Source: Candidatus Caccovivens sp. (lineage in GTDB: Bacteria; Bacillota; Clostridia; Christensenellales; UBA1242). From it: a stretch of 64,000 nt of DNA. The stretch spans positions 5,896 to 69,895 of the forward strand of contig JAZRRN010000048.1 of the NCBI GenBank assembly GCA_045650745.1, given 5' to 3'. This document shows positions 5,254-64,000 of the stretch, piece by piece. Both the position numbers and the translations under genes were made by a program. A model generated the notes under the pieces. It made no database searches. It saw only the letters and a list, made by a program, of their open reading frames with translations, and was not told where the DNA came from. The stretch's first letter is position 1. Each line of letters starts with the position of its first letter.

Positions 5254-5256
5254 ACA

Positions 5257-5287
5257 ATTTGCAAACAAAAAAAAGAGTGAAAAGTTC
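5257..5287 (-). terminator. Terminator of the 5312..7621 gene
   Basis: GAGTGAA (5265-5271), 3-nt loop, TTCACTC (5275-5281), flanked by A and T runs. On the minus strand it is followed by T8. Confidence 0.75.
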
Positions 5288-5311
5288 ACTCTTTTTTGTT
5301 TTGATTGATTT

Positions 5312-19600: not shown

Positions 19601-22600
19601 GATCAAATCGTTGTAGTCCTCAATTGGGATAGGACTGTCTTGTGTGCTTTGATCATGCACATCAAATTCGAAAACAGTATAAACTCTTTCAGCACCATCT
19701 CTTGTTGCGCTGTAAGTATAAACACCGTTTCTCATTGTGTAATAAGAATCCATTGAGAATGAATAAACATCACTTGTTTTTGAATTGTAAACTCTAAGTG
19801 GAGTTACAGTGTAACCAGCAATTTGATAATAGTCAGTTCTAATTTGAGAATCGCCTGACAAAACTGTGTCCTCGCCATTCATATAAACTGTCCATGTGAC
19901 ATTGCTTGACATTTCACCAACAAATGTGTCAACTTCGTTGCTTACGATTGGGTTTGATTTGTCATATTCAAGGAAGCTTCTGATTGAAAGTTGAAGTTCG
20001 TAAGGATTTCCGATTGCTGTTGAGATAACGCCATCAACCATGCCTCTTACAAGGTCGAGATAAACGCCTTCTTCATACACATAGTTAAACACATATTCCA
20101 TTACATACAAACGGATAGAATCTTCGCTTCTTACGGCTTCGCCATTGACAATCTTTTCGCCGATTGTCTTGATCATAATTTCTTTTCCAATTCCACCATC
20201 ATAAACAATGTTTTCTGATGTAACCGTCAAAACATATTTTGCACCAACTTTGTTGATTGAAACAATTTGACTTGCATCAGAAGGTTGTCCATTTGCGTCC
20301 AAGATTTGGATTTCAATTTGATCTGCTGTGTAACCATAATAGTTTAATGTCAAATCATAAGAAAGACCACGGGCAACATAATAATATCCACCAGCATCTT
20401 GCTTGTCGTCAAAAACAAGTTCGGCATAACTGCCAAGTTTTGTTGTCAAGTAAACTGGATAAGATTCAGCAAATTCGCCTCTATTTCCATAAGTTACAGA
20501 AACATTAAATCCAACAGCCACACCATCAGAAACATTCTTTGATGGCATGTTGTACATAATATAAACTTTTCCAACATAAGAAACTGAAACTGTGTTCAAG
20601 AACGAAATCATTTCGTCGTATGTGAAGCTAAATTTGCCATCTTTTTGACTTCCAAATGTGTCAACTCTGACAAATTCCAATTCGCTGCCAGCTTCTTGCT
20701 TTTCATAAACAAATGTAAACAATGCTTTTGCTGCATCTTTGCTTGAATTTTGTGACATATTTTCGATTGTAAATGTGTTGAACACTGCTTCAACAGGGTC
20801 AACAAACACTTCAATCAAACCGTTTTGTCCAGGAACAATGATGTCATCAACCACTGAAACATCATTGATGTTTGAATAGTTGTCTGCTGTGATATAGTTT
20901 ACGCCTGCTTCATCAAGGTTGAGTTCGACTGTTGCAAACACACCATCATAAAGCTCAGTCGCATAGAAGAAGATCACATATTTTCCAAAAATTCCTGTTT
21001 CAAATCTGTTTACAAACGCATCACTTGCAGAATTTACTCTAAGAGAATAGTCAAAAACATTAACCATTCCTGCTTTTCTTGCAAGAGTAACATTAAACAA
21101 ATCATCTGTAAGTGAAAGTGTGTTTACAAATGCTTGCCACTCTGCCTCAGAGTCACAATCATTGATGTTGTCAGGCATTCTTGATTGAACAAGCCTGTCT
21201 TCATCACCTTCTCTATAGAAGATTTCGTAGAACAAATATTCTTCATCATTTGTTGAGTCAACTGTCACTGTGTCAGTGTAAGGTTCGTTTGTTTTGATTG
21301 AAATTTCAACACTGTCTGGTCTGATCGCAGATGCTGTATCTTTGTAAACAACAGACAAATCAATTTCAGAAGCAGACAATTCGTAAACAAACAAATATGA
21401 TTGCTCGCCAATTGTCACAGAAACTTGCAACATAGGCACAAGTGTGTAAGAGTCAACAGCACCTTCAATCGCTTCTGCACTCTTATAGAAGATGATTGTT
21501 TGCTTGTTTACTTGCACTGATGAGAATGTTTTTACATTTTCGTCACAATCTGCAAACAATTGAGAGTTTCTTGTCAAATTGTATGCAACATTTTTGTATG
21601 ACAAAACCCCTTCTTTTGTGATCGAATATTTGTCATTTTCGCCAAGATATGTCGCAGTGTCATCAAGTGTGTATGTTGGCACCAAATAAATGTTTGTGTT
21701 TGAATTTCCATAAACTGAAACTTGACTTCCGTTTACAACATTCATTCCACTTGCGTTTCTGCTTGTGTAGAATACTGATCCTGCAACATCTTTGTCGAAG
21801 TAATTTGTAATATAAATATAAACTGTTTTAGATTCTACTCTATTCAAAATGCTTGTCAATGTCAAAGTTGCCAAACCAACGCCATGCGCGGTAATGTTTC
21901 CATGAATGTCAACTGACAACAATCCTGCTTTTTCTGCAGTCGAAATGTTTACATCTTGACTTGTGATTTTGATTGGATAGAAATCAGAGTTTGGAGAAAG
22001 TGTGTTGAGTGCCAAAACTTCATCTTGCACCACTCCGGTTGTCGAACCACTTACACGGTTGTCAACACCAAAATAATACATAAAGTAAACACTTACACCT
22101 TCAACCGAGCCGTTTGTCATAAGGTAAGGATTTCCAGCATCTTCACCAAGACCAACTTCTTTTGTTTCGAAGCACACTGTTTTGAAGATTTCATAAACAT
22201 TGCCCACTTTCTTGAGAGAAACAAGATCTCCATAATAGTGAGTTGTTGAAGTGTCTGAAGTAGAACCCAACGCTGTTGATGGGTTTACAATTCTCTTCAA
22301 ATACGAAACTGCTCTAAATGCCGAACCATAGCTTCTTCTTGTTTCGCTAGCATTTCCAACCATTCCATAAACGCCTGCAGCATCAAATGCAACTTGCTTA
22401 AATTTGATGAGCATTGCAGAATAAAGAGTGTTTCTGCCATCGTCAACTGCTTCAATATAGTTTCCAGAACCAAAGTTTACACGATATCTGTCATCAACTG
22501 ATGCGTCAACAAAGTCATAACCACAAATTGTTCCAACATAGTCATATCCTCTGACAAAGATACGAGAGTTGTTTGTCCAAATGTCAATTCTGTCAACATT

Positions 22601-41052: not shown

Positions 41053-41081
41053 AATTCTCCTAACATTTCAGCCTGTATAAC

Positions 41082-42901: not shown

Positions 42902-42954
42902 AACTTGCCCTCTGCACAATAAAAAATAAACAAACTTTTACAGAGGTATTGTAG

Positions 42955-42984: not shown

Positions 42985-43344
42985 TCAACTTTTGAAAATT
43001 GCACGCAAAATAATGCCAAAAACAAAACTTACCGTTGCCAAAAACATACTTCGCAGCACCAGCAATCCCATTGTCCTTCTGCTTTTTTTTGCATCAACCA
43101 AATATGTCTGCCCTGCTTTTTTCAAGTTTACACAATAAAAATATCCGTTCTTCCCATCAGAGACAACAAAGTCAATGTAATTTTGGTTTGCCAACGAAAC
43201 CATAATTTCGTCAATCTCCGAAACAGACAACACAAACTTTTTTGACAATGCTTGTGTTATGTCTTGTGGAGCAATCAAATATGTTTTGTTTTTTTGACAC
43301 TTTTTGCATAAATATGTCATAGTCAGTTTTTCTTTTTTTGTCAT
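42985..43344 (-). CDS. Small protein with a winged-helix-like N-terminal domain and a C-terminal TM helix, paralog A
   Basis: The start at MTKKEKLTMTYLCKKCQKNKTYLIAPQDITQAL.. is chosen by alignment with the divergent paralog. C-terminal TM segment: MGLLVLRSMFLATVSFVFGIIL. Confidence 0.6.
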   Translation of the reverse strand: MTKKEKLTMTYLCKKCQKNKTYLIAPQDITQALSKKFVLSVSEIDEIMVSLANQNYIDFVVSDGKNGYFYCVNLKKAGQTYLVDAKKSRRTMGLLVLRSMFLATVSFVFGIILRAIFKS

Positions 43345-43434
43345 AGTTATTCTCGAAATTTTGCGCAAAAATCTTCATTTTTGCTCCTTTTTGCTTTATG
43401 TATATTCTTGCCAAATATTTGAAAAACTAACACT

Positions 43435-43821
43435 ATGATTGACACAAAATCCAAATTAATCCTTTCAATCTTGTCAAAAGAATGCGAAAACGGAAACTAC
43501 AAAATCGTGGAAATATGCGACATAATCTCTGCTCTTCCACGGCAATTTCGCATGGACAGCGAGGCCGTAAAACACATTTTAACCTATCTCGAACGACAAG
43601 ATGCAATCTCAATAAAGTATGATGATGACGATGTTTATTGTTTAGCAATTTTGCCTTATGGGTATCAAATTTTGGAAAATGCAAAACCCAAACTAATTTA
43701 TTCAAACTCACCAAAAACAAACAAATTTACGGCAATTTTGTGCTTTTTTTCTGCATTTCTAGGCACAATTGTCGGCATCGGTATAACTTTTTTGCTGATC
43801 AAACTTTTTCATATTTCATAA
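43435..43821 (+). CDS. Small protein with a winged-helix-like N-terminal domain and a C-terminal TM helix, paralog B
   Basis: MIDTKSKLILSILSKECENGNYKIVEICDIISAL...YLERQDAISIKYDDDDVYC..; C-terminal TM FTAILCFFSAFLGTIVGIGITFLLI. No obvious SD. Confidence 0.6.
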   Translation: MIDTKSKLILSILSKECENGNYKIVEICDIISALPRQFRMDSEAVKHILTYLERQDAISIKYDDDDVYCLAILPYGYQILENAKPKLIYSNSPKTNKFTAILCFFSAFLGTIVGIGITFLLIKLFHIS

Positions 43822-43870: not shown

Positions 43871-44605
43871 TTATTTTGAAAAAAGTGTTTTAAGTTGTTC
43901 GACATCACAGTATGATCTTACCAATCTTTCATCTTGTTGACTGTACACTCCATCTTCGCCAACAATATAAGAGTCAATAAAATTCACACCACAAGTTTCG
44001 CACAAATTTTTTACCATTTCAAATGCTTCAACATCATTTCCTGATGGCATTGCTCTCCCATAAGGATGACAGTGTGCCACAACAAACGATGCCGGTTTTG
44101 ATGTTGAAAGAAAATTTGTAAGTTCCAAAACACTGATGCTCACTTGACCAGAAGAGTCTGATTTGATCCTTCTTTTGTGAGTAACAATGTTGCCTGCACT
44201 GATTGCAATCAAAATCATATTTTCAGTGTTTCTAAATCTCAAATTGTCTTCAACAATGTCGATAATATCGGCCTTGCAAAAGACTTTTGTCTTTTTGCCC
44301 ATTTTGCTTGATGTGTAGTGAAAAAACAAATCACCAAACAAAACAATCTTTTTGGCAGACCTTTCGTTTATGCCTTTGATGCGAGCAAGATCGCTCACCG
44401 AAGCATCAACAATGTTTGCCAAAGATTCGTATTCTTCAAGAAGTCGATGGGCGAGAGGATTTACATCTCCTCTAGGGAAAATGTAAGTCAAAAACAATTC
44501 AACGACTTGCACATCACTCATATTGTCCACCCCTGCATTTACTGCAAGGTCAGTCAACCTTTGTCTGTGCCCTTCATGCATTGTTTTTTCAATGTCACCT
44601 CTCAC
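43871..44605 (-). CDS. radC: RadC-like JAB-domain protein, paralog 2, located 24 nt downstream of the giant ORF
   Basis: GTG start at 44605, 8 nt after AAGGAG. (M)RGDIEKTMHEGHRQRLTDLAVNAGVDNMSDVQVVELFLTYIFPRGDVNPLAHRLLEEYESLANI.. The JAB region is ..FVVAHCHPYGRAMPSGND. Confidence 0.85.
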   Translation of the reverse strand: MRGDIEKTMHEGHRQRLTDLAVNAGVDNMSDVQVVELFLTYIFPRGDVNPLAHRLLEEYESLANIVDASVSDLARIKGINERSAKKIVLFGDLFFHYTSSKMGKKTKVFCKADIIDIVEDNLRFRNTENMILIAISAGNIVTHKRRIKSDSSGQVSISVLELTNFLSTSKPASFVVAHCHPYGRAMPSGNDVEAFEMVKNLCETCGVNFIDSYIVGEDGVYSQQDERLVRSYCDVEQLKTLFSK

Positions 44606-44629: not shown

Positions 44630-47600
44630 TTATGAATGGTATTCACTTGGGACTTCAAAGCTTCGTGTCATATTGATATAGTTACCGGTTGACCAAACAG
44701 TTTTTGCTCCACCACCTTCCCAGTAGAACCAAGCAGGTTGAAGAACAAATCCGGCAGTTGCCTTACCATCAATATACAAATAAACTTTTGTTTCGTCGCC
44801 AACTGAGCCAGAAGCATCTACTTCAGCTTCAGCATTGTCCCACCACCAGTCAACACCGTTTTGAACGAAGGTAAATTGTTCCCATACCCACCAAACAAAT
44901 TTTGTCTTGTTGTGTGGGAACAAGTGTCCAGTTGCATCTCCGACTTTTGAAGCTGTGTTTGCATGGTGAAGTCCATGCTTAACGGCTGCACCAAATGTTG
45001 TGCCGTATCCATTGCCTTCTGCCCATGTGCCACTTGATGGAATCTTAGAGCTGTCATTGTTTGAAGCAGCATAATAATAGTTTGATGCGCCTGGATCGAT
45101 ATATCCAAATCCACCAGAACCTGACAAACCTGCATATACCTTTGTGCGTGGAGTTGGCGCTTCAAGTGCTGTGGCAGAACCTGTGCTTCCGTTTGAGCCA
45201 TTTGTTCCACCTGCACCAGCAGAACCACCATCTCTGATAGCAATGCTTGATGTGTTGTCAATATAACCATTGACGCCACTTCCGCCATAACCAGCAAATC
45301 CACCTTTTCCAGCTCTTGCAATTGATGTTGATTGAGATGCACCAACATCAACCGAACCTCCATTGCCTCCATTTTTTCCTGTTTGACCATTTCTTTCAGA
45401 ACTGTCTACAGAAATCTTTCCTTCAATACCATTTTTTGCACTGCCAGCATCACCTGCGATGAGCAAGTTTTTTGCAGTGTATGTTTCTTCTGCAGCGAGC
45501 GCAACATTGTCAATAAGTTTTGTTGTTACGCTGTCGCCAGCATCAATTGTTGATTTAAATTCGGCAGACAAACCAGAAACTGCAACATTTGATTTAAGTC
45601 CTTTGTATGTCAACTTATCGCTTCCACTTACTGCACCAACAGTGATGCCAATGTCGTGTTTAGCGTTTCTGATATTTCCATACAACGAAACATTATCCAA
45701 AGTTGTCACTGCCGAACCTTGTCCACTAAGAAGCAAATAGAATTCTGGTCTACTGTTGTTGATTCTGCTTCTAAGTGAAGAAGATCCAACAACGATAAGA
45801 TTTTCGATGTTTCTATTGTTTGTGTCAAACAAACTGCTTTGTTCGCTGTTCGAACTAAACGCAATAATCTTGTTTTGTCCGATAATTTCAAAGATGTTTG
45901 TTGTCGAAATGTTTCCATCAATGTAAACATTGTTTGCCAACATCATCTTGTTGAAGACTTCTCTCTCTTCTCCAGAAGATGCACATGAAATTGTTGTATT
46001 TTTTGTGTATGTTGCATCGTAAGAATACAAATAAATTGTTTCGTTGATTCCAGAGTGATCAATTCTTCCTGTGCTTGACGATTTGATATCATTAGAAGTT
46101 GTGTTCTTGTGATATTTGAATGAATTTGGCACAAGGAGATGTCCTGAAGCCAAGTTGAGTTGGAATGTCTTTGAATGTCCAGCAACAAGGTTTTGAGTTG
46201 TTGATCTGCCTGCACTCTCTTCTCTAAGTTGATCAAACTTCATTTGCAAGAAACCATAATCTATCTTGTATCTAACCAAATTTAAAGAATCGGCAGACCA
46301 GCCACCTACGACAAGTTCGACAGGAATTTCTGCTTCTGTGCCTTGACTTTCCATGCTTTCAAACTTGCTTGCATTGAAACTTCCACTTGTTGCATTCTTA
46401 TAGTTTTCTTTCCAGTTGCAAGCTGCATATGCATTCACCCCATCAGTTGATACACTGTTTGCATGGACTGTATACATTGTCTTTCCATCTGTAATAAACA
46501 TTACGGATTTTTTGAGTTTTTTCTCATCATGCTCAACTTCTTCACCTTCGGATGAATTAACAGCGTTATACATGTAAGCAATTGAGATAACACCATTTTC
46601 GTAAATACGATATTCATATTCGTATTGAGTCATTGCGTAAGCAACATCTCTTGTGTATCTTGAAGTTGTTGCAACAAACTTTTTGCCATTGATCCAATCG
46701 TCGATGCTGTTTGATGGGGTTGAAATGTCAGACTCCTCAGTTCCATAAGCAACTGTAAATCCCTTAATGAGATCTTCTTCACCATCATCGTTCAATTCTA
46801 CCCAATTCATTCGAATTACTGTGTCAGTAGGACCCAATTTGTCAACGCCAGCCTTCCAAGATCCTCCCATGGTTGTCTTGATGTAAGTGATTTCAAACTT
46901 GTCGCCATCAGCAACATCATTGAATGTGTATTTGTGTGGCGTTGCATCTCTGTCATAGTATGTTTGAACATAATCTTTTGTTGCATTTGCAGAAGATTTT
47001 TGGGTAATTGTAAATCCAAGAGCTTCTTCGTTTGATGCTGTGATTTCTGTTCTTCTTGTCAAATCAAGAGTGATTTGAACAAGTTTTGTTGATGACAAAC
47101 CAAACTTAGCGCCACTGCTAATAACATTGACTTTTGCGCCATTTGACATTGCATCCAAACTTACGCTTGTGCTTGTGTATTGAACATTTGAGATCTTTCC
47201 AGCAGCTGCTGTAACAGTAACATATCCACCAGAAATGTTTGTTGTTGTTGCAACTGTTGCAAAGTCATCAATCTTAAATCCATCTTTTACTTGAGAATCT
47301 TTTACTTCCATATTAGATCCAAGAAGGTTTGTAGATTTGTTTTGATTCCAGTCAGCAACAGCATAAACAATGAATGCACCATTTATATCATTGATAAATT
47401 GTGTTTTCGCTGCCGAAGGTGCGCTGTTAATTTGAACACCAGTTGAATTGAAAGTAATAATTCCTGGAGTCACATATGTGCTAGTAATTGATGGGGAGCA
47501 AGTAACCAAACCACCTTGAATTGTAAAGTAGTGATTATCGTCCCAACCAAATGCAAAGTTTTCACTTGTGACACCAAATTCTGTTTTCAAATTTGCCCAA

Positions 47601-50600
47601 GAATTGATGATTGTTTCAATTTGCTTACCTGCACTTGAAACTCTTTCTTCTTTGTAGTTTGCAAAGTTTGCTACATACCCTGTAACACTGAAATCATCAT
47701 AAACTGTTTTTTCTGCATTTGCTCTGATTTCTGCACTTACATTGACTTGGGTTTTCCAATTTTCTTTGTAAGCAAGTTTAAGTTTCTTTCCATTGAATCT
47801 GTTTGCAATTTGCATATCATCGCCCAATTGAGAACTAAATTCAAGATAAGCAACATTAGAGTGTCCATTAAGAGTTCCGGTTGTATATTTCAAAGCATAA
47901 TTTGAAAGAGTTTGAACTGGAGTTTCAATTGTTGCAACAAGATCTGTAAACCACTTTGTGCCTGTGCCAATCGAGTCAGTTGACTCTCCATTTGTCACAT
48001 ATTTGTTGTAAGTATCAACAAAACTCTTTGTGATCATAACATTGTTGTCAAAGTTTTCTTTGAGCAAGATGTATGTCTTTCCACCTTGGTTGAACACGTT
48101 GTTTTCGCCAAGAGTAACAGTTCCACCTGTCTTTGAATAACTCAACGATGCTTCAATGTTGAATGATGTAACTTCTGACATAAAGCATACTGTATATTTT
48201 GCAGTAACATTTTTGCCAGATTTTGTAAATCCATTGAAGATGTTTCTTGAATACAATGCTGTGTTTGGATTTACACTTGTCACTCTGTTGAATGTGACTG
48301 CAAAGTTTGAATATTTGTCAACAGTCTCGTCCAAAGTGAATGTAACTTCTGCATCATATTTATATCCGTTGTACATTGCATCAACTTGATTTGCATTTGA
48401 AACGATGTTGATCTTTTCTCCTGCAACAGTGATTGTCTTTTCAGCCTCAAGAGACTTGATTGTTTTTTCAATTTCAGCAACTTTTTCAGTAATATAAGCA
48501 TCATTTTCTTGCTTATTTCCTGCATCATCAGTTCTGTTTGTAGGCTTTAAGAATGAAGTTGATGTGTAAGCTTGCACTTTATCGCTTCTCTTTGCGCACA
48601 AAGCAGCAAGTCCCATATATGGGTTTTCTGCATAAGTATAAGATCCATTTGCAGTTTCGTTGATTGTGTAAAGCACATCATCATAAGACATAAACTCAGC
48701 TTCTGCAAAGTATTTCACACTTCCCGAACCAGGCATTGTGTAATCTTCATTTGTGAAGTCAAAATCTGTTCCCTTTGTATATTCAACCCAAATTCTTTGT
48801 CCAAATGAGAATGTTTCTTTTCCAGTAAGAAATCCACCAGAATAAGAATATCTTCCTTTAAGATGCCATTCGTTTTCAGAATATGTTGGAGTTGCAGCAA
48901 CTTTGATGTCGTTTGAGTTTTGGTCGCCTTCGCTTGCATATTTTCTTTGAACAGCATCAATACCATAGATTCTTGTTGGGAATCCAAATGAGTCAGTTCC
49001 GTTGATACGATATGTTGTATCGCCAGTGCCCTTGTCTGTGCTTGCAAAGTTGTATTTATCAAATTTGCCCCAGAATCTCTTTGACGATGTTGCATCCAAC
49101 ATTTGTTGTCTGTCAAATGTCATTGTCGCAGAAACTTTGTATTCACCAATATTTCCATCATTCTTAACATTGTCTGTTGAACTTGATGTGTTTGTAATTA
49201 AATTAGCAGACTCTGATGTCCAACCAATACCATAAGCATAAACTTGTCTTTGTTTGCCAGGGTTGTAAGTCAATTCGTATGCGACCGAGTAATCTCCTGG
49301 TGTGTTTGTGTAAGCTTGATTTGGTGTGCCAGAAGTTGTGGCAGAGATTGAATAGTTGTCTGTGTTAGATCCATCAGGTCTCTTGCCCAATGCTTGAACA
49401 GCACCATCATTTGCACAACCAGTAACCTTGATGCCATCAGCATAACCAAAGATACCACCAGCAACATTCAAACCTTCTGACTTATAGTTTCCTGCGCCAA
49501 CAAATCCTGTGTTGTAACATTCTGTCAAACCATAAGTATTTGCACCAGAAGCAGATTTTCCAACAATACCACCAGCATAAGCAGCAGAAGTTGTATTTCT
49601 GTCTTCTGTATAGTTTGCAACAACCATACCTGTGTTGTATGTTTTGTTGATGTTTGAAACAGCAGCACGACTTCCTGCAATACCACCGGCATCAACTTCG
49701 ATGTTGTTGTGTGTCACAGCAACAACTGCGCCTGCGCTGCTTGAATTTGTAATTTCACCATTTTGCAATGCACCAACAAGACCGCCGACTGCACCACCTC
49801 TTGCAGTTACATTTACGGCAGATCTAACCTTGCTGATTTTTGCAGAGGCAGAGTCGATAACACCAACCACACCACCATAAGCAGCTGCAACATCGTCCTT
49901 TGTTGAAGTAAGACTTCCAACAACAGAAACATTTTCAAGCAAACCATTCAATTTGTTTGCAACAGTTCCTGCCATTGTGCCACTTGCAGTTACATTGATA
50001 TTTGCAATGTGAATATTTGACAATGTTCCATAGAACTCAGCAAAAATACCATTACTCATACCAGATGTCACATTTGTGTAATCCAATGTCTTGTTGTTTC
50101 CATCAAGAGCAAACGCAAATGAGCTTGAGCTCTTGTTGAGAACTGTAATGTTTGACTTTGAAGAAGCCAATTGACTTGCATCAATGTCATATCTAAGAAT
50201 AAATTTGTAGTTGTAAGTGTATGATGAGCCTGTTGTCACAGTTGCAATCATTTCGTCATATTTTGCCGCATTTGGAATTTGCATATACCATGTGCCAATA
50301 CCTGATCCTGTAGGCAAAGTGCAACTATTGTTGAAGAACCCTGTAACAATTTCATCAACACTCAAAACTTGATAACCAACACCTTCAACAGTAATGTCGT
50401 TTCCGTCATCATCTATTGTAGGTATTTCGATTGTTGTTTGTTTGTAAGTTGTGACATTTTTCAAGAAGTCAAATCCATGCACGCCATATCCATAGTTTAC
50501 AAATGGAGAGAAGTACCATGCATATTGAGTTTCTGGAGCAGTGTCACTTGGGTTGAGTGAGAACACTCTCTTTCCGTTTTCCAAATCTGCAAATGTCAAC

Positions 50601-53600
50601 GAAGCTGTTTCAGTTGAAACTGTTCCATCAGCGTTTGCACCTGTGTTTGTAGATTGTGTGCCTGAAGAGTAGTTCAAAACATTTTTGATTCTGCTTGCAA
50701 TAGTGTTTGCTCCGTCTGAAGTTCTCAAGAAGAAATCTCCAACAGTCGAACTCTTTGCAGCGTTTCCATTTCTCAAAATTTGAGAGATTGAATAAGAATC
50801 CAAAATGTAGTTCTTTTGAGTTGCAGCATATCCATTTACATTTGCAAATGTATAGATGTCAACTGCAGTGTAAGTTTCAATTCTACCTGAAGAGTAAACA
50901 TTTCTTGTAAATGTGTATCCCGTCATGTAAGTTGTAATTCCGGCAGCATGTCCATTTGCTGCAGCACGATATGTCATGTCAACATCTTGATAACATTCAA
51001 TAATCGCACCAGATTCTGTAAGCCCTGAAATACCACCAAGGATCAATTGAGTTGTTCCACCAACTGACAATTCGCCCTTCACACCAACAGCGTAGAGGAT
51101 TGCGTTGCCTTCCATCTTTCCAACAACACCACCATAAACACCTCTTTGTGCAGTTGTTGCACCTGCGTGTTTGTTGATGTCTGCCTCTCTTATCTTAAGG
51201 TTTGCAACAAAACCAGAAATTACGCTGAATGACAATTCTTCGCCATTTCCCATTTTGTGAGCAAGACCACCTTTGATAGCCATTGTGTTTGCGCCGTTGT
51301 CTGCAACACTAACTCTTTCGTCGTCAGTTCTTGTAAATGTTGTTCCGTTTCCAACAACAACCATGTTGTCAAGATTGTCTGCGATAACATCACCAACATT
51401 AAGATCTTCCTTAACAACCACCCACGCAACATTGTTGAAGTGGTTGTCCATCTTTCCGTTTCCATCAAAATCCTTGCCATCAGCAGAAATCTTTCCGTTG
51501 AAGGTTTTTGGATTCAATTTGTGCCCCATAACAAGTTTGTCTCTGTCAATGTTAAACACAGCCAATGAATCAAAGATGTCATATGCACCGGCTGCAATTG
51601 CTGCAGCATCTTTCTTCATTTCGCCGATGGAATATCCTTTATACAATCCGTCAACACCATATCCCCTATCTTCAACACCAGCAATCTTATCAGCTTCGTC
51701 TTCATAACAAAGTGTAACTTGTGATGAATATTTGTTTTCTGCATAAGCCACTGTGCCTTCTTGCAAAGCCACAAATGGGCCAATGTTGATAAGGTGATTT
51801 GCTTCTGTTGTATTTGATGGTCTTGCATTGAAGTTTGTCATCAATGAAACACAACTTGAAATTGTCATATCAACTGTTCTTGCAACAATACCACCAAAGT
51901 AATATGACTTCAATGCCTTGTCTGTGTTTGCTGGATAGTTTACAAACACATCTCCGTAAGAGAGGCAGTTTTCAACGATAACTGTCTTTCCAGCTGTTGT
52001 AGCTGCACTTGAGCCAATTTTTGTAAACGCACCAATAATACCACCAACATTGACATCTGCTTTGTCAAATGTATTGTAAACTTTCAATGCGTTTCCGGTG
52101 ATTGCATTTGCAATTTTTATATCTCTGGTAGCTGAAACTTCACTGTATGCAATGTTTCCAACAAGGCCACCATAGTTGAGGGTTCCGTCAACATTTGAAA
52201 CCAAAGTTCCTTCATATTTGTAGTATTGTCCGTTGATTGCTGATGTTTGCATTGTAATATTGCCGGCAGTTTCAGTAATCAAACCAATCATACCACCAAT
52301 GTTGGCAACTGCTTGTCCATCACCTGCTTTAATAGAAATGTCGATATCATTTGTACAATTCAAGTTGTCCAATGTTTCGAGTTCTGAGTCAAATCTTCCG
52401 ATAACACCACCAACATTGAGCACGCCTTTGTTTTTACTTGATTGAACATCAATCAAACCATCAACAGAAATCATGCCTGCGATTGTAACTTTTGCTTGTG
52501 TGATATTTCCAAACAAACCACCAACTGCAGGTTGTTCGTTTGAGAACACAACGGGTTTTGTCAAATATGTTTCTTTGTGAGAAGCATATTCTTCTTTTGT
52601 CGCTTGCAAAGAAGTTGCATTTACTTCTGTGTTTGCCAATCTAAAGTTGATGTCAATGTTTGACACAACGATTTGATTTTGACTTGGTGCCAAAACTTGT
52701 CCAGCAAATCCACCAAGTGCAACATTTTCGCCAGCAAACAACAATTGATTATCTGTACCAAACACAGATCCTTCTACAGCAACTCTTGTTGCGCCTGTGC
52801 TTGAAATGTTTGCATCACAGTTGTCAAGTTCACCAAATCCAAGGCCAAGTGCGGCATTTTCAACTTCTTTTGGAAGTTTGATATTGATGCCGATATTTTC
52901 GCCTTGATATGCATCTTCTTCACTTACTGCGATCATTGAGATTGCATCTGCAAATTTTGTTTTTGCAGCATAACCACCAACATACAAGTTGTCTGGCAAG
53001 AAACTTGCGTCACCTTTTACGATTGACAACTGAACATTGTTGAGAGGTTCAAGTTCCAAAGTCAATTTAGCATTGTCTGAAGAAACTTTTGTAATAAGAC
53101 CAGCATAAACTCCCACATAAGCAGAAGCTTGAATTTCATCTCCAAAGCCTTCTTTTCTGCTGTAACTCATATTAAACTTGATTTCATATCTCTCTTCGTC
53201 ACTTGTGTGGCTTTCACGAGTAAACTTGATTGATGAAACAAGCATAGGGATATAAGTTTGATTTTGTTCAATAATTCCAGCGAGCAAACCAATGTAAGCT
53301 GCTTCGTTGTTTTCAAGTACTGTGTTTTCGTATTTGAAGTTTACACCATTTTCGATGTCTTCTCTAGCTCTAGCTACAAATTCAATGCCAGAGAATGATG
53401 TTGATTCGGCAATCTTTCCAACTACCAAACCAGCCATCTTGCTCACATTTTCAGAAGTGTAGTTTAAAGCAGCACTCTTTGATGCTTCGAGATAAACTTC
53501 ATAGTTGAGCACAAATCTAACATCTTCAAATGATGATGTAATTGCATCTTCTTCAATTATGCTGTATTTGATTTCGTTTGTTTTTGTAAGGTCATCACCT

Positions 53601-56600
53601 TCAAAGTTGATAGTGCCTGCCATATAGAAATTCAAATCTCTGATTGTGGCAGAAGAGAGTTTCTTAAACATACTTGAGTGCAAAATGACACCAACTTTGT
53701 CGCCAACTCGTCCACCATCTGAAACCTCACCAGTAACATATCCCAAGTCAGTTGCGTTTGCATATTTTGCATAAGAAACCAATGTTCCAGCAAATTCAAC
53801 ATTAAGGAATCTGTTGAGAAGTTCTCTGCTTACGCCAGTTTCACCACCCCATGTCACTTCAACATCTTGACATGACATGTTGTTTTCGTCGTTGTTAAGT
53901 TTTCCTCTGACAACAACTGTGATTGATGGATTTTCAATAACTGAAGCCATAACTTCTGCTGTGTTGAAATAATCCCAGAAAATGATTGATGTTTTAGGGA
54001 ACAATTCGATTGTTGGGAACAATCTATCCATTTCGTGATCCCAGAATTCGTCAGCCCAACCGTTTGGAACAAAGTATCTTGACAAAACAGCATATGCTTG
54101 TGACATTGTTGCCATTGAAGACTTATCACTGATTGAAGTTGCATTCAAGCAAGATCTTTCTTTGACTTGAGCTTCAAATCCAAATGGATTGATTGTGTAA
54201 TTTGTTGCACCAACCCAAACATTTGAATATCCACCTACTGACAAAGCACCAGAAATTTCTGATGTTTGTGTTCCGTCTCCAACATTGTATGCACAATCTT
54301 CGGCATCAATAAGATACAAGTTGTATCTGCCTTTAAGATTTGTTGTTTGAGCAACAATCTTTCTGTCAGATCCATCTGTCTTATATCCATAAACGCCACC
54401 AACAAGCATAAAGTGTTTGTCACTGGTTGAAGTCACCTCGCCATCGCCAAGCAACTTGCCGTTTTGATGTGCATAATAGTTTGTTGCCATAACATTTTTC
54501 AACGCTACTGTGCTGACATAAGTAAATGCATCTGCCGCACTGACAAATTCAGTTGCTTCCAAAGCACCAACCAAACCAGCTGCAACGCCAGATCCGTTTA
54601 CAACAGCAACATCGCCTGATGCGTAAACATCGTTGAGCAAAATGTTTGTTTTTGGAGTGTTGTTGATAAACATCAAGTCAAATTGATTTGCAACAACACC
54701 TGCATAACCAACGATACCACCAACTGCCAATGTTTCTGTTGAGTAAGAAACAACATTGAGTCTGTTGTATCCAACATAGATGTATCCACCACCCATATAA
54801 CCAACCAAACCACCAACAAACAATGGGTTTGATTGTCTTGATTCGTAATGTTTGTCTGCTTCTGTGTAAGAGAAAATTGACATTTGTCCTCTTTCAACAT
54901 CTGCAGATCCGTTGTAGTAAGCATTTTCATTTGCTTCAATGTCAGCTTGCAATTGTGATGTATAGCTTGCATAAACAGCAAACAAACCACCATAACTTTC
55001 ACCGATCAAACCACCGGCATACAAGTTTTTAGCCGCAATGTAAGAAGCAGATTTTGATTCTACTGCAGTTTCTGGTGCTTCCAATTCGATGTTTGCATCA
55101 TAAACAGCAGTTGATTCGCCAACATAACCAAAGAGACCTCCGGCCACGCTCGCATAAATGTCGACTGAGTTTTTAACTCTGATAGTAACAACATTAAATT
55201 GTGTAACATCGATATCTGTTGAGAATTTTGCAGGTTCGCTGTTGAGCGTACGATAAATGTCAACATAACCAGCAACACCACCAGCATAAGAAATGTTTGA
55301 AACTTTGTCTGTCAAAATGTTTTTACTTTCAACAGCATTTCTCAAATCTTTGCCTACAAATGCTCTGTTTGTTTCAATTGTTCCGTTTACTTTGTTTGTA
55401 GCTTCAACAACAATGTTTGTAAGTGTAATATCACTCAATCTGCTGTCGCCGAAAAGCATACCAACAACACCACCAACAACATTTCTGCCTTGGATTGCTG
55501 TTGCACCTGTCGAATCTTTTGTTTCAACAGGTTGAACATTGATTGACAAAATTCTTGAGTCAATTGCAGTTCCTGCCAAAGCACCAACAATGCTTGCTTT
55601 TGCGTTGTGGATTGAGTTTACTGTCAAATCCATATTCACAACAATAGCACCATCAAACTTGGCAAACAAACCATAGTTTTCGCACGCTTCGTTGCTACCC
55701 AAATTGATGTTTGAAATCTTAAATCCGTTTCCGTCCAACAAACCAGTAAATGTCTTCTTTGTTGTTGTCAACTTGATTGAAGATTCGCCTTCTGCGTTTT
55801 GATCAATGTTGTCCATATCGAGGTCGAACACAATTCTATAATGTCCGTCAACACTGTCATCATCATAATATTCTTTATAAGAAGAAATTTCTTTTGCTGT
55901 AGCTTTTCCTGTTGCTTGAGCAAATTCTTGTTCGCTTCTAATAATAATTGGGTTGTTTTCACTTCCATAAGCAAGGTTTTTCATTGTGTAATCTGAAAGA
56001 TCCATAATGCTCTTGTTGTAGAAGATAGAGATGTCATCTCCATTTGTCACAGCATATCTGCTTGACATTGCAATTTGATTTGCACTAACCAAAGAAACAC
56101 CACCATCTGTCATTTCCCAAATGCCGTCATAAGCACCTTCTTGAGAAGAGAAACTGAATCCGTAGAATGTTTCTTGTTCGTCATATTCGTTGATACCCAA
56201 AGCACCCTTAACAAGTTTTGATTGAATTGTAGTGTCTGAGCTTGAGTTGTTGTAATAGTAAGAAAGTGAAATTTCACCTTGATTCAAAGATTCTGATCTT
56301 TCTGCACCAGAGAATGGCATTTCGTTGATGTCTGTTGTCGAAATTTCGCAAGCAGAATAACACAATGTCACAGTTGCTTCTGGGCCGTTTTTGTAAACAA
56401 AACCAGCAACTGATGCAGCCTTTACTTCGTCGTGTTCGATTGCAATGTTTGCATATGAGTTTTTAACAAGTTTTGCGTTGTCATAAACAAATCCGGCAAT
56501 TGTTCCGATCGCAGTGATCTTTGATCCATTGTTGTAAACATCTTTACCGTTTGGTGTAAGTTCTCCAGCAACCCCTTCAACATAACTGCCTTGAATGCTG

Positions 56601-59600
56601 TTTGTGTTATACAAAGCAAATCCAGCTGTCAATGATTGAACTGATTGCATATAGTTCAAAATTTCAATCTTCTTTGCAAATGATGCACTGATATATCCTG
56701 TGTTTGTGTGGACAAAACCAGCAACTTCACCTTGCGCTCTGATCGTAAATTTGTCAAGAGGAGTTGTTGTAATGTAGTTTGTTCCGTTTGTCACAATAAC
56801 ATGACTATATTCGTTTCCACCAACACGAGAGTTTGTGATTGATGAAGCGTTTTCGATAACAAAACCAGCAACTCTGCTTGTCACACCACTAGAGCTTGTA
56901 AGGTAAGAGTCATCTGCATTTGTGCCAAGTGCATATTTGACTGCCAAACCAAAACTGTTTGACAATGCAGACGATTGATAAGAGTTGTCGTATGATGCCA
57001 CAACTTCGCAGTTGTAGATGATACCATTGTTTATGATTGCAAAACCTGCAATATCAATGGTTTCGTATTGTGTTATATCAACAGAAATTTGTCCACCATT
57101 GTAGATGTTGACTCTAACATTCTTCAAGGTTGTGTTTGCAGTCACTTCTGTAAACAATGCAAGTTGCACCGTGCTGCCCTTTGGCATTGCAAAACTGTTG
57201 ATGTGGATTGTGTAACCATTTCCGTCCAAACTATTTACTTTTGTTGTGTCAAATGGAGTATAGTTTGTCAAAACAATATCTTTCATCAAGATATAGTCAT
57301 CTGCTTCTGCAGAATTTTTCAACAATCTTTCAAATTGTTCTGCAGAAGAAATTTGTGTAGGAAGATCTTCATCTGAATAAACTTCAACCACAATCAAGAA
57401 GTAATATGGGACAACCATTTCAATACCTTGATAGTTTACGGTTGTTTCCAATCTCATAAGTTGAGTTCCACTTTGCTTTCCTGTAACTTGAAGCATTTCC
57501 ATTCCGTTTACATAAGTTGTGGAAATTGTGAAGTATCTGTTGTCAGCAATTCCGTTGTTTGGATTGTAAATTGCTGACCAGCTGTTTTCGTTTGCAGCGT
57601 AAGCGAGTTGTTGCTTGAGAGAAAGTGCATTAAATGCGCCTGTGTGTTCGTCAAAACGGTGATTGATGTAATAACCACAGTTGTCATCTCTAAAGTTGTT
57701 TTGAAGTTTAAATTGATTTCTCTTTGCTGTCAAATCTGCAACAGCTTTATATTCGCTGGCATTTGTCTTGTCGTAGTTGTATTCTTCTGGAGTAAATGGA
57801 TAGTCAAATGTCAAATATTGTGTGTCGTTGAGATATGTGCGATAAACATCATAAACTCTTCCGTTGTATGCCATTGTAGAACCACTGGCAACAACTTTGA
57901 TTTTGTTTGCATCAACAGCAAAGTCAACCAAACAAAGAGTTGCTTTGCTTACTTTTGTTTCAGCAACGCCATTTTCAATTTTTTGCACTGATGCACAAAC
58001 ATAGAAAATACCTGTTGTAGCGCCATCACCAAGCACTGCGTTTACGCCGGCACGGATTTTTGCTCTATAAACTTTGTATTTTGCAGTTGGATCACTCACA
58101 AGTTCTGGAGTAGAAAGTGTGATGTTTGCACCATTGTTTTGCAAATAAACTCCATAAAGGTTTTGATCTGCACCAAGTGTCACTTCAACATAAACAGACT
58201 CGCCTTTTGCAAGCATATATGTTGTTTGACCTTCATCTTCAAGATCACCCTTTACAACAATGTCAGCATCTGGCATATAAGCCACAGACATTGTTGAAGT
58301 TCCTGTCTTGAGCACTTGATCTTCATAATAATATGTAAGAGTAAGTGTCAAATCGCTGTCATCAGCAAAAGCACTTGACAAATAAAGTCTAAAGAAAAAT
58401 TCTCCTGTGCCTTGCTTGTCTTCTTCTGTAAGATTTACCAAAATTCCGTTTGTAAGCAAAACTGTGTTTTCAGTATCTGTATAATATCCATACATTTCAT
58501 AACTAAGTTTTGACAAACTTACAGTTCCGACACTCTTTCCTGAAACAGAATATGTCAAAGTAAAGTGTGTCATCTTTGCATAAGCAGGTGTAACATTTAC
58601 TGCCACAATTGCATCAGAAGATGGTTTCAAAACGCTTGTAATAACATCTTCAGGATTGAAATACAAAACAGAGTTTCTAATTCTTCTGCTTGCAATTTTG
58701 TAAGTTGCAATAGAAATTGTGTCAACAGATTGAGTCAACACTCTAACATTGATGCTCTTTCTGTATGTATCATTTTCTTGTTGACTGATTGCATTTACAG
58801 ACAAAACGATGTCTTCATAAGTTTGTTCTACCAAATGCTTGCAGTCATTTTTGATTTTTACCACTACTGCATAAGTCATTGTTTTTGAAGTTGCGCCTTC
58901 TTCAGCAATCTTTGTCCAATAAACTTCCAAAGTCACTTTGCTGTCAAGTTTATATTCAAAAACATTGTCATCAACTTCTTCGCCTTCAACCGAGATTTGA
59001 CCATAAGTCATATCAAACACAAGTCCATCATCAGCATTGTCAGTAACAATTGTCACTTCAAAACTTCCGTGATCTGATGGTTTGATTTCAAGGTCAGAGG
59101 CATCTTCGATGATGAGTGCTGTTGCACCATCATAAACCTTAATCTTATAAGATTTTGCAAGTTCTTCAGCAATTTCTGTTGCATATTCTTCTGCAAGAGC
59201 ATTCATCTTGACATTAGAATTGATATCAATAGAAACATCTTCACTTGCTTTAATACCTTTAAAGATAAGAGAGTTGCTTGTTTTTTGAATTGACAAAAAT
59301 TCTTTTTCAGAATCTTCCAATTCTTCATAAGCGATTGAATAATCAGCTTTGTCAGTTTGCAATTCGTAAGGAACATCTGTTCCGTTGAGATAAACTGCAC
59401 TTGAATAGTTGTAAATCACATTTCTTGTTTTGCCGTTTTGCAACAAGATTGTTTGATTGTTTTTGATTGGATTTCCTTCCAATGTTGTTGAAAGTGTTGG
59501 AAGAACATTTGCAATCACAACATTGAAGTCAAGAGATTGTGTAAAGTCCATTTTTGAGTGAACTGTAAGCACAAATTCGTCCAAGTTTTCTCTAAGCAAT

Positions 59601-62600
59601 CTGATTGAATTTGCAGAGATAACAACATCTTGACAAGTTGTCGAAACGAGCAATGTGCTTGCTTGTTTTTCTGTCACACCAAACAAATCTGCTTTTGAGA
59701 TTGTGTTGTATTGATTCAAGATCATTTTTTCTCTGTCATCAACAACATTCAAAACTGGTTGATAAACAAACAAAATTGCTTTTGTGCCATCTTCAACTTC
59801 AAGCACTTGCAATGGATCTTTAACATCTGCAAATTTGACAGTGTCAATTTCAACTGCGATTGTTTGTTTTACATCTTTAAGGTGAACAATACCAAAGTTT
59901 ACTTCAGGTTCAACTTCTTCTTTTTGCCAGATGTTTCCATCAAGCCCTGCAACATATGTGTCAAAGCCAGTCACCCAACTTCCCATACCGTTGCTTCCAC
60001 CAAGATAGTCGTATGTGTAAGCAAATTTTGTATCCTTAAACACTCTCGAAACAAATGCATCTGTCCTATAGTATGTCAAATATGAGTTTACCACAGCAAC
60101 ATAATTGTCTGTTTCTGAAGAATGTGTTGGAGCTTCCAAATCGCCTGCAAAAGCAAAGCTTTGTTCGATCTTTGTGTCAGTAACATGTCCGGCAGCAAAT
60201 GCACCAACCTTGCCTTCTTGTGCAATAAAGATTGTCTTGTATGCATCAACCGGTGCCAAATCATCAGGATCTGTCAAAGAGTATGCATACATATATGATT
60301 TCAAAATCCAGCTTCCAGCGCCGGCATAACCAACAATACCACCAACATTTCCTTTGGCAAAGATTGTTGTGTTTTCAGTTTCAAATTTGTAAAGTTCGTA
60401 ACCAGAACCTTCAATTCTTCCAAAGTTTTGTCCAGCAATACCACCAGCATAACCTGAATTTGCACCACTGATGCTTGCACCATAAACAAAACTGTCCTTA
60501 ATTGTGCCTTGGTTTGATCCAACGATTCCACCGACTGCAGTGTTTGCATTTGGTGCAGAAATCATACTTGGCACATATTTTCCACCAACATAAGCAACAT
60601 CAACCTTAACATTGTTGATTGTGCCCGTGTTGACATTTGCAACAAAACCACCAACTCTGTCATCTGTTGAAACAACATTTCCAGCAAATGTCAAATCTTT
60701 GATCACACCTGAAAGTGACTTAACAAATTCTTCGCTTGTGCCAGTCATTGTCAAAGTGACTGTTGGTTCGTTTCCATAAATCATACCACTGAGAGTTTCA
60801 TAAGCAGTCCAATCTGTCAATTCGATGTCATTCATCACTCTGTAGTATTTTGCAGTGTCAATTTTTTCCAAGTCGCCTTGGTTGTAAACTCTGATTGCAG
60901 TGCCTTCGCTTTCACCATCTGCGATTGTGATTGCAATGCGCACAATCAATTCTGAATAATAAATCTTTTCGCCTGAGTTGTTGTAGAAATAGTTTGAATA
61001 GTCATCACTGCCATTGATGATTGCATCATAGTTTGAAACCAATTCTGAAACTCTGATGTATTTTGCAGTTTCAACAACATTTCCACCAACTTCATCATAC
61101 TTGTAAACCAAAACATGTTCGATGCCTTGCACCTCTTTGATCATGTCTGTTGGCAACAAATAGATATAACCACTTCCACCTGTTGTTGTGTTGATTGTGA
61201 GGTTGAATGATTGTCCAGATGAAGAAGCCAAAACATTCAAATCGGCAGACGAACCACCACCAGTTGCAAAGTAATATGCTTGCAAACTCAAATCATTTGC
61301 AGTGCTTGGAGCAACTGAGGTTGCAATTGTAAAGTTCTTTTCTGTGATATCTCCAGTCAAGTTGAGATAAATTTCATCATCAATTGTTCTGTTGAGCCAT
61401 CTTACACTTTCAACACGGTTTTCATTTCTGATTTCAATTTGTATTTCTGCAGATCTTCTCAAACCATTGCCATCTTCGTAATAAACAACCAATGTTTCTC
61501 TTACAGAAGTTTGCAAGTTTGTTGAGTTTGCAGTAATTCTAAATGTCAACACTTTGCCATCTTGTTCTACTGCAATTCTGCCAACTGAATAATAGTCGTT
61601 TTCATAATATGTTCCGTCAGCAGAAACATATCCAAAGTTTTGAATTGTTGGTTCAAAAGTAAAGTAAGAAATCGCATCTGTGTATGTAGGGATTTTTTCG
61701 TCAGAACGGAATGTAACTCTTACATCTCTGTAAGATCTTGCCATATCGCTGATGCTCAAAGTTTCTGTTGTATACAAAGTTGCTGTTGAAATGTTTGATT
61801 TCATAAACTTTACAGGATAGAAACTTTCCAAAGCGAAAAATCTTGCAAGTGTAAACGATTCGTGATCTTCATCAAAACCATTCACCAAAACGGCGACATA
61901 ACCTCTAAATTCGTTGTCTGTGAGAGTAAGTTTTTCTGGAGTAAGTTGGAAATACATTCCATCAAGATTTTGGAAGTAAATATAATATTGACTAGCAATC
62001 AAAGAAAGTTGATTTTCTGTAAAGATTTCATTTGCTCTCACTTGAGCATCTTTGTCTTCAACAATGCTTTCAGCAATCTTTACTGCATTTACAAATTGAT
62101 CATAACTCAAATATCTAAATTCAATGCCTGCTTCTGTCAATGTCGCTCTGCGATAGTTTGTAGAAAGCACAGCACTAGAACCAGCTTCAAGCATAATCTT
62201 TGAAAGCGAAGTATCAATTATTGCATCACTTTCTTCAATCACACCACCAGCCAAAACATAATTTTGGTCAGCCATTTGGTCAACATAGATGTCCATTGAT
62301 GCCTTGTCAGCATTTGTCATGCTTGCATATGACAATGGCACAAAAGAATGAATGTTAAACGCACCTGATTTTTTGCCGGTAATATGTTCAAACCAGAACT
62401 TTGTCGAACCTTCAAAATTCAATTCTTTCAAAGTTACGGTAAATTCAACGATAATATAATCTTCATCGCCATCAGAAACCACTGATTTTAAATACAATGG
62501 CGAAAATTCAAACTTGTCAGCATTGCTTCCAGCAACATTGTTTCCATACTTAAGTTCCAATCCAGCTTTTGTTGTCAAGTTTTTAAGTTTGATTCTATAT

Positions 62601-64000: not shown

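Follow-up and report, generated by a model that had tools for sequence, protein, structure and literature searches.

A 64,000-nucleotide stretch of a Candidatus Caccovivens sp. genome (contig JAZRRN010000048.1 of assembly GCA_045650745.1, positions 5,896 to 69,895; hereafter "the window") ends in a very long open frame on the minus strand, which encodes all but the first 81 codons of a predicted giant surface lipoprotein. Our results demonstrate that this giant gene is a real, intact and vertically inherited core gene under purifying selection, and that the tip of its product is mosaic and recombinant. The chances are slightly better than even, in our judgment, that the product is a membrane-anchored attachment fibre with a variable tip, contacting a partner cell, a host surface or a particle.

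By translation, the frame runs from position 64000 to a TAA at 44630 and comprises 6,456 sense codons without an in-frame TGA or TAG. This agrees with a preliminary description of the same DNA, which had also recognized the GTG at 63967 as internal; that codon is simply the first possible start within the window in the open reading frame (ORF) list, and no stop separates it from base 64000, to which the frame extends. The probability of such a frame arising by chance, given the base composition of the strand, is approximately 1e-210. The remaining five frames of the region carry 201 to 476 stops each, their longest open stretch being 195 codons, and the G+C contents of the giant ORF at codon positions 1, 2 and 3 are 46, 39 and 29%. 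Together with a second giant ORF of 3,440 codons described below, the gene occupies 46.4% of the window, matching the earlier estimate of about 46%.

44630..64000, minus strand: giant lipoprotein gene, codons 82 to 6537 plus the TAA stop (44630-44632), defined by the open frame and by identity to residues 82 to 6537 of database protein P0013

The missing start was recovered from the database. An exhaustive HMMER search using the last 1,200 residues as the query identified a protein of 6,537 residues, P0013, with 100% identity. Residues 82 to 6537 of P0013 are exactly the window protein, and the window is therefore short of only 81 codons. The N terminus of P0013 (MKKFAFAILSVFMVLGGMVLSAC/EKN, encoded beyond the window edge) is a classical lipoprotein signal with an LSAC lipobox, having the positively charged n-region, the hydrophobic h-region and the lipobox [LVI][ASTVI][GAS]C that we used to define lipoproteins. 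The true N terminus with its signal or lipobox had been placed outside the window in the preliminary description, and this is where it was found. The same lipobox motif is present in 12 of 12 related loci. In a strain with 94% identity (L002; Clostridia bacterium RGIG3948, from roe deer caecum, 305-kb contig), the ATG of the giant is preceded by a GGAGGG ribosome-binding site, and a promoter-like site, TTGACT-17-TATAAT, lies approximately 50 nt upstream of the gene. No hydrophobic segment above a KD19 hydropathy of 1.5 was found in the 6,456 residues of the window protein (maximum, 1.48), i.e., there is no membrane segment. After the predicted signal cleavage, the protein would consist of approximately 6,514 residues, with a mass of approximately 708 kDa and an isoelectric point (pI) of 4.6. 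We infer from these features that the giant is a lipid-modified surface lipoprotein. Neither lgt nor lspA was seen in the window, in which no search was aimed at them.

Evidence that the gene is genuine comes from its relatives. The giant is intact in two strains, in three database records of 6,537, 6,535 and 6,544 residues. The latter two represent the second strain of the P0013 cluster (MBQ7327834.1, annotated as "hypothetical protein", with 6,535 residues; Logan/ENA assemblies, five contigs, with 6,544 residues). They are identical to each other except for the called start, and they share 95% identity with the window protein, with two gaps. When one genome per GTDB species was scanned, collinear orthologues were found at 11 further loci in 10 species-representative metagenome-assembled genomes (MAGs), one of which is labelled Candidatus Caccovivens. 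Each of the 11 gives a single BLASTP alignment of approximately 3,700 to 4,800 residues with 41 to 45% identity, and all are open to their ends, the frame exceeding 3,700 to 4,900 residues. Past the match point, four metagenome loci with the 3' end extend for another 2,131 to 2,240 residues, and we therefore estimate the length of the orthologues at approximately 6.4 to 6.5 thousand residues. For the window and L002, the ratio of nonsynonymous to synonymous substitution rates (dN/dS) over 4,833 codons amounts to 0.10, and no 500-codon bin has a ratio above 0.28. Tandem Repeats Finder and a repeat finder detected no tandem or long dispersed repeats in the giant DNA, only short matches between GLUG motifs, so that repeat-driven misassembly is not a concern. 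The claim of a single real giant ORF is thus borne out by the two intact strains and their three records, while the frameshifts or misassembly that might have undermined it are contradicted by the orthologues, the dN/dS and the absence of DNA repeats.

A mobile-element origin was considered and rejected. The core of the protein (residues 2200 to 3200) had no tblastn match in phage or plasmid collections, and the synteny around the gene, which is described below, is conserved. As for the C-terminal end, its last 1,300 residues had no match in a word-indexed database. An exhaustive search with the C terminus returned only the giant itself, a 129-residue fragment and a 1,682-residue protein that aligns solely to the C-terminal part of the giant. 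We found no paper describing the family of the giant, and its database name is "hypothetical protein".

The protein appears to be built in part from six related modules. When the orthologue alignment was compared with itself by hhalign in 200-residue windows, six regions, and nothing else, were linked to one another with probabilities of 65 to 93%. They are as follows, in window-protein residues.

60293..60844, minus strand: GLUG-type module A, residues 1053 to 1236; Pfam Glug 28.0 bits, hhalign links to B, E and F
56456..57295, minus strand: GLUG-type beta-helix module B, residues 2236 to 2515, the best conserved and common to the 3,440-residue neighbour (g1); AlphaFold2 model, Foldseek matches 3n6z and 6xja, BLASTP and profile matches to g1
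54452..55843, minus strand: GLUG-type beta-helix module C, residues 2720 to 3183; hhalign to F 93.5% and to D 92.5%, modelled as a beta-solenoid
51941..52594, minus strand: GLUG-type module D, residues 3803 to 4020; hhalign to C 92.5%, cluster of GGxxG motifs
50894..51298, minus strand: GLUG-type module E, residues 4235 to 4369, the weakest of the six; hhalign 65 to 69% to A and F
49772..50212, minus strand: GLUG-type module F, residues 4597 to 4743, with motifs continuing to approximately residue 4860; Pfam Glug 21.2 bits, hhalign 90 to 93% to A and C

The Pfam family Glug (PF07581) scores above its gathering threshold of 20.5 in only two of these, within residues 1030 to 1330 (28.0 bits) and 4610 to 4920 (21.2 bits), and it does so only on shorter pieces; scans of the whole protein against Pfam and NCBIfam report nothing. 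Modules B to E lie below the Glug cutoff and are linked by hhalign alone. The six modules thus appear to be distant relatives of each other. The earlier count of at least six GLUG modules holds at the profile level, and the four peptides quoted in its support are all present, at approximately residues 1058, 2237, 2751 and 4629.

An AlphaFold2 model of residues 2200 to 3200, made from 11 sequences, has a mean predicted local distance difference test score (pLDDT) of 72.7 (approximately 90 across module B) and a predicted template-modelling score of 0.76, with short, evenly spaced strands arranged as a beta-solenoid. In Foldseek, this model gave its top matches to two beta-helices, those of 3n6z (BACOVA_03286; probability, 1.00) and 6xja (Streptococcus pneumoniae IgA1 protease; 0.98). 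A Foldseek search of a viral library gave the same picture, with matches to proteins named as putative IgA1 proteases or right-handed beta-helix proteins. The two modelled modules (B and C, of the six) are therefore predicted to be right-handed beta-helices. The proposal of a surface structure with GLUG beta-helix modules can accordingly be retained in the form that the protein is partly built from them, as judged by Pfam Glug, hhalign, AlphaFold2 and Foldseek; the beta-rich arrays said to separate the modules were checked within residues 2200 to 3200 only. The matches to IgA1 proteases raised the possibility of a protease of that type (M26; ZmpA/B/C), which we rejected. Neither the giant nor g1 contains an HExxH or HxxEH motif, and no peptidase family or M26 catalytic domain was detected in the giant with Pfam or NCBIfam; the lack of HExxH indicates that the giant is not an IgA1-type protease.

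The remaining approximately 5,500 residues, about 85% of the protein, are nonrepetitive and belong to no Pfam family, nor do they match any solved structure by sequence or by orthologue profile where this was tested. Pfam searches of whole halves, of 660-residue pieces and of 10 orthologues of residues 1 to 1050 and 1240 to 2230 yielded nothing but Glug. A match to PUB1 (E 3.5e-4) was dismissed as low-complexity sequence at or after a glycine-rich stretch. BLASTP of the giant against itself gave no off-diagonal matches, i.e., there are no internal protein repeats at the level of BLAST, and Pfam detected no SLH, cell wall-binding or S-layer family. The invariant residues of the best-conserved module consist largely of Asn, Gly and hydrophobic ladder positions, not of clusters of charged residues. 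Judging from these sequences, the giant appears to be a surface protein made without tandem repeats and lying, over approximately 85% of its length, outside every known family.

Conservation falls steeply along the chain. The following regions can be distinguished.

54701..61603, minus strand: conserved core, residues ~800 to 3100, with 44 to 67% identity per 100-residue bin to nine orthologues
44633..49009, minus strand: variable C-terminal third, residues ~4998 to 6456, delimited by sliding DNA identity to L020, by the synonymous substitution rate (dS) and by orthologue identity
45041..45943, minus strand: C-terminal solenoid-like cap and glycine-rich stretch, residues ~6020 to 6320, GKNGGNGG...GKGGFAGYGGSG...GSGGFGY, from an alignment of five C termini and an island of 34% identity

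Identity to the orthologues of other species falls to 18 to 41% at residues 3200 to 4800 and to 14 to 26% per 100-residue bin in the last 1,450 residues, except for one glycine-rich bin with 34% (residues 6201 to 6300). The cap with the glycine-rich stretch is the one partly conserved island in the tip; a Trp-rich end follows, and this layout is recognizable in orthologues, whose last ~60 residues keep shared motifs. At the strain level, the DNA of L020 is 89 to 99% identical to the window at residues 3000 to 4990 and 94 to 98% identical in radC, the gene downstream, and only 59 to 75% identical in three blocks of the tip (residues ~4998 to 5095, 5296 to 5980 and 6281 to 6456). The divergence has an abrupt boundary at the stop codon. 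In the tip blocks, dS rises from approximately 0.1 to 0.6 to 1.3 (5- to 10-fold) with dN/dS near 0.29, and we therefore attribute the difference to old divergent alleles brought in by recombination and not to simple decay. The window strain and the roe-deer strain carry one tip allele and L020 carries another.

In L020 (ENA ERZ27302292 k141_1548380, positions ~9734 to 9800, corresponding to window position ~45260), one T is missing in the glycine-rich stretch, so that AATGGTTATATTGAC becomes AATGGTATATCGAC. This splits off the last 211 codons, and the giant is consequently called there as a protein of 6,348 residues and a separate ORF of 129 residues. The missing T could be a sequencing error or a real frameshift.

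Several candidates for the nature or origin of the tip were considered and set aside. A glycine-rich domain of the ALK/LTK type, considered for residues ~6200 to 6320, found no support: no Gly_rich match with an E value of 1 or below was obtained in six C termini, and a profile search of solved structures with the tip returned no ALK or LTK entry. A polymorphic toxin tip resembling CdiA or Rhs is not supported, since the next gene at every locus examined is the conserved radC and no immunity gene is present. A diversity-generating retroelement is unlikely as the source of variation, because the divergence spans kilobases and dS is raised as well, although no search was aimed at reverse transcriptase genes.

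The other giant ORF of the window, g1 (16676-26998, minus strand), encodes 3,440 residues and is also a predicted lipoprotein, with the N terminus MTKTLRNIIISLCSVFAFLFAGFFFVGC and a lipobox, FVGC, at residue 28. It lies directly downstream of a VirB4-like gene and directly upstream of rpoB, and it matches no Pfam family. The preliminary description had regarded the architecture of the giant as paralogous to that of g1. This could not be upheld, as BLASTP and orthologue profiles identify a sole shared collinear block of approximately 650 to 800 residues.

17534..19648, minus strand: block of g1 (residues 2451 to 3155) homologous to residues 2209 to 3004 of the giant; BLASTP 25% identity, E 5.5e-36, and profile hits

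The orthologue profiles confirm residues 2216 to 2857 of the giant within this block. The two proteins thus appear to be relatives in one two-module cassette and in general design, not full paralogues.

The VirB4-like gene upstream of g1 (27040-29739, minus strand) encodes an ATPase of 899 residues that matches the NCBIfam family NF045975 (VirB4_plasma, the Mbov_0397 family, of the type found in conjugal transfer by mycoplasma integrative and conjugative elements [ICEs]) end to end, with a score of 579 bits that is under the cutoff of 590. It sits among core genes (hflX, a PRC-barrel gene and rpoB), approximately 15 kb from the giant, and family scans of the window recognized no further type IV secretion gene beside it. 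The giant is neither inside nor adjoining a VirB4/VirD4 cluster; the only such gene, the VirB4-like one, adjoins g1.

The genes around the giant keep their order on both flanks. In L002 and eight other species, the nine loci that include approximately 9.7 kb of upstream sequence, the order upstream is mfd, a gene of unknown function, an LPG-synthase-like gene, three small unknown genes, a gene for a secreted M23 peptidase, a gene for an acyl carrier protein, spoIIID and the giant. The suggestion that a VirB4-like gene or another ATPase partner might be found upstream therefore fails in all nine. Downstream, the order is radC, two small conserved ORFs and uvrB. The flanking genes are far more similar to their orthologues than the giant is (Mfd, 75 to 80% identity; UvrB, 87%; RadC, 61 to 69%).

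43871..44605, minus strand: radC-like gene, 24 nt past the stop of the giant; Pfam RadC and HHH_5, same position in L016 to L021
43841..43869, unstranded: palindromic terminator-like hairpin with a 13-bp stem, directly after radC; consensus scan, pattern match only

A consensus scan detected no terminator-like site between the giant and radC, and the two are probably cotranscribed. The gene directly upstream of the giant, spoIIID, encodes a mother-cell sporulation regulator (positions 9156-9446 in L002, same position in nine other loci). Downstream of radC are two small, divergently oriented ORFs (42985-43368, minus strand, 127 residues; 43435-43821, plus strand, 128 residues), which have no Pfam match and each carry a hydrophobic segment at the (C-terminal) end of the protein. 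Across species, they share 60 to 79% identity and keep their place between radC and uvrB. Between these ORFs and uvrB, the window contains an ABC transporter pair (ATPase and ABC-2 permease) and a coiA-like gene (40192-42919, minus strand). The transporter pair is also present in L020, and the transporter and coiA-like genes are absent from that position in L016 to L019 and L021, indicating a lineage-specific insertion or loss.

The content of the window as a whole (rpoB, rpoC, uvrA, uvrB, hflX, coiA, ABC transporter, radC and class II fructose-bisphosphate aldolase) identifies it as cellular chromosome. Its other genes include two at 1965-5219 and 5312-7621, both on the minus strand, which encode a 1,084-residue protein with a collagen triple-helix repeat and a 769-residue protein with a GDSL lipase/acylhydrolase domain, respectively. 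Exact-sequence look-up of the RadC and VirB4-like proteins of the window returned no record.

Taken together, these features suggest how the giant may work. The protein would be exported and lipid modified on the Cys of the LSAC lipobox, and the lipid anchor would tether its N terminus to the outer face of the cell membrane. With an N-terminal anchor and no further membrane segment, the chain would project outward, as a very long, nonrepetitive and largely beta-structured fibre holding the six GLUG-type modules, to which a solenoid-like cap close to the end probably adds a seventh. The membrane-proximal half (residues ~800 to 3100) would serve as a conserved scaffold, and the distal third (residues ~5000 to 6537), which has diverged almost past recognition between species, would be the variable contact end. 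Surface display, the geometry of the fibre, the adhesive role and the identity of the partner are all parts of this reading that we infer. For GLUG-motif membrane proteins of an archaeon from the gut, a function as adhesins has been suggested (PMC9723798).

Several observations weigh against an attachment fibre. Pfam and NCBIfam searches, including those with 10 orthologues, recognized no adhesin, lectin or carbohydrate-binding domain, and solved structures gave no credible match in sequence searches with both halves or with profiles from four orthologue alignments. The AlphaFold2 model of the tip, made from a three-row alignment, has a pLDDT of 30 and gives no usable fold. In three more distant Clostridia MAGs (L013, L014 and L015), the collinear homologue is distributed over two or three consecutive ORFs in different frames (e.g., 2,550 residues and a continuation, or 979, 1,377 and >3,800 residues). 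Such assemblies are few and either more distant or of lower quality, and the splits may be natural or may be assembly errors. Moreover, as the Foldseek matches show, many polysaccharide lyases, hydrolases and phage depolymerases adopt the right-handed beta-helix as well, which leaves room for an enzymatic role. As a separate observation, a stretch of approximately 4 kb with opposite-strand genes interrupts the homologue in L014.

Such an enzymatic role could take the form of a surface-tethered multienzyme, whose beta-helix modules would act as lyases, hydrolases or depolymerases on host mucin, on glycans of the diet or on the capsule or cell wall of neighbouring bacteria. Such activity would supply nutrients to a cell devoid of standard transporters and biosynthesis, or open access to a partner cell. 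The Foldseek matches of the modelled modules indeed include enzymes with a right-handed beta-helix (PL6 alginate lyases [E 5.5e-4], capsule lyases, tailspike depolymerases and pectate lyases), the giant proteins of predatory Omnitrophota have been linked to cell wall degradation (bioRxiv 10.1101/2023.11.21.568195), and the M23 peptidase gene is upstream in conserved synteny. However, the enzyme matches have probabilities of 0.04 to 0.57 and template-modelling scores of 0.1 to 0.25, whereas the high-probability matches are the noncatalytic GLUG helices of IgA1 proteases. Searches of the window protein and its orthologues brought no lyase, hydrolase or peptidase family of Pfam to an E value of 0.05; the closest was one marginal match to Pectate_lyase_5 (E 0.47) at the C terminus of a single orthologue. 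The Asn, Gly and hydrophobic ladder positions that dominate the invariant residues of the best-conserved module and the lack of HExxH also speak against catalysis, and we regard the multienzyme as unlikely, if a serious contender. Alternatively, the giant could be an abundant envelope protein that coats or shields the small cell, in the manner of an S-layer or a decoy, against phages, host immunity or bile; the variability of its tip would then reflect antigenic or phage-receptor escape and not the choice of a partner. This would fit the lipid anchor, the acidic pI and the lack of enzymatic domains. Allelic replacement confined to the exposed end at the strain level is what immune or phage pressure would produce. 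Against this, no SLH, cell wall-binding or S-layer family was detected, a nonrepetitive monomer of 708 kDa would be an unusual building block for a lattice, and length and order that are kept so strictly over 6.5 thousand residues point to a defined long structure more than to a simple coat. A coat seems to us distinctly unlikely.

The end-to-end match of the 899-residue ATPase to NF045975, at 579 bits against the cutoff of 590, and its place directly upstream of g1, which shares the two-module block with the giant, raise the possibility that the giant is the surface contact or recognition part of a VirB4-like conjugation-like or uptake channel, comparable to the surface lipoproteins of mycoplasma ICEs. 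We consider this very doubtful, since the giant is not adjacent to the ATPase, none is encoded upstream in the nine loci, the giant has a promoter-like site before it (in L002) and radC a terminator-like hairpin after it (in the window), no other type IV secretion gene was recognized in the window, and the core has no plasmid or phage homologue. An artefact of assembly or a pseudogene in decay would find support in the missing T in L020, which splits off the end of the gene, and in the distribution of the homologous region over two or three ORFs in some distant relatives. This we regard as a negligible risk in view of the full-length frames in two strains and three records, the frame of >3,700 to 4,900 residues in 11 loci, the dN/dS of 0.10, the absence of repeats that could mislead an assembler and the chance expectation of approximately 1e-210 for the open frame.

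The attachment fibre can be compared with known systems. The beta-helix modules of the giant resemble those of the IgA1 metalloproteases (S. pneumoniae, 6xja/6xjb; Gemella haemolysans, 7uvk) and BACOVA_03286 of Bacteroides ovatus (3n6z) in the right-handed beta-helix, the GGxxG (GLUG) turns and the DGNG-type entry strand. The IgA1 metalloproteases differ in their HExxH motif, M26 domain, G5 domain and LPXTG anchor, all of which the giant lacks, and in having one helix where the giant has six or seven; the giant is lipid anchored and 4 to 5 times longer. Giant repetitive adhesins such as Ebh of Staphylococcus aureus and the RTX/Bap-type proteins SiiE and LapA are very large, acidic cell-surface proteins without enzymatic domains, and they are thought to bridge long distances to a surface. 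They consist of arrays of near-identical tandem domains and are held by LPXTG anchors, a C-terminal membrane segment or type I secretion retention, whereas the giant has no tandem repeats in its DNA or protein, six distantly related modules and an N-terminal lipid anchor. In phage tailspikes and tail fibres and in proteins of the filamentous haemagglutinin/CdiA type, a conserved proximal shaft carries a recombining variable distal end that sets target specificity. The giant shares this logic of shaft and variable tip, and matches to beta-helix structures were seen. In contrast to phage fibres and CdiA, it is a chromosomal core gene in conserved synteny whose core has no tblastn match in phages. 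Nor was a TPS domain, a VENN-type boundary or an immunity gene downstream observed. The lipoproteins adjacent to VirB4 in mycoplasma ICEs (the context of NF045975) are likewise large lipoproteins in small-genome Bacillota, but the adjacency to VirB4 holds for g1 and not for the giant.

Giant proteins have also been described from ultrasmall or partner-dependent bacteria of the Omnitrophota, for which beta-helix filaments and a role in cell contact were proposed (West-Roberts et al., bioRxiv 10.1101/2023.11.21.568195). The likeness lies in a very large gene in a bacterium that is, or is proposed to be, partner dependent, and in the beta-helices. The Omnitrophota giants differ in having many transmembrane regions together with a SecA DEAD helicase domain of divergent sequence, neither of which is found in the giant (maximum hydropathy, 1.48; no SecA or DEAD match). 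The Clostridia giants in the same study carry RCC1, Listeria-Bacteroides-repeat or dockerin arrays over 10 to 30 thousand residues or more, and the family of the giant differs from these types. We would place it with the giant surface fibres/adhesins, as a family that we did not find described in the literature.

Candidatus Caccovivens corresponds to UBA11517 in GTDB (family UBA1242, order Christensenellales), with a type genome of 1.1 Mb (PMC8035907). Genomes of UBA1242 range from 0.67 to 1.6 Mb, mostly below 1 Mb, and lack amino acid, nucleotide and lipid biosynthesis, part of glycolysis and the standard transporters for sugars, amino acids and peptides, while sporulation genes are kept (PMC12306168). 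The presence of spoIIID beside the giant fits this reported retention. Members of the family have been proposed to be obligate symbionts or parasites with uncharacterized membrane proteins for cell contact (PMC12306168); they are widespread in animal and human guts, and the mechanism of contact has not been described (PMC12306168, PMC13155120). The small-genome context invoked in the preliminary description is thus plausible, given the orthologue-bearing Candidatus Caccovivens MAG in this reduced-genome family (PMC8035907, PMC12306168). The gene order shared with its relatives and the 75 to 80% identity of Mfd suggest, indirectly, that the organism of the window falls within UBA1242 or close to it. 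If the genome is within the size range of UBA1242, the 19.6-kb giant gene alone would account for approximately 2% of it, and for approximately 3% together with the 10-kb g1. The giant gene is preserved intact, under purifying selection.

A more far-reaching reading, which we put forward tentatively and consider doubtful as a whole, is that the giant is a partner-attachment organelle of a family that has converged on a cell-dependent life like that of the Patescibacteria. The conserved N-terminal 3,000 residues would be the stalk, with recognition cassettes specific to each strain in the 1,450 residues of the recombining C terminus, and the giant may act with g1 and the VirB4 ATPase. If this is true, the C-terminal cassettes would set the partner cells or host surfaces that are open to a given strain. 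The combination of a lipid anchor, a conserved shaft and a recombining tip makes the giant a testable candidate for holding on to a partner or a surface, and for strain specificity, in UBA1242.

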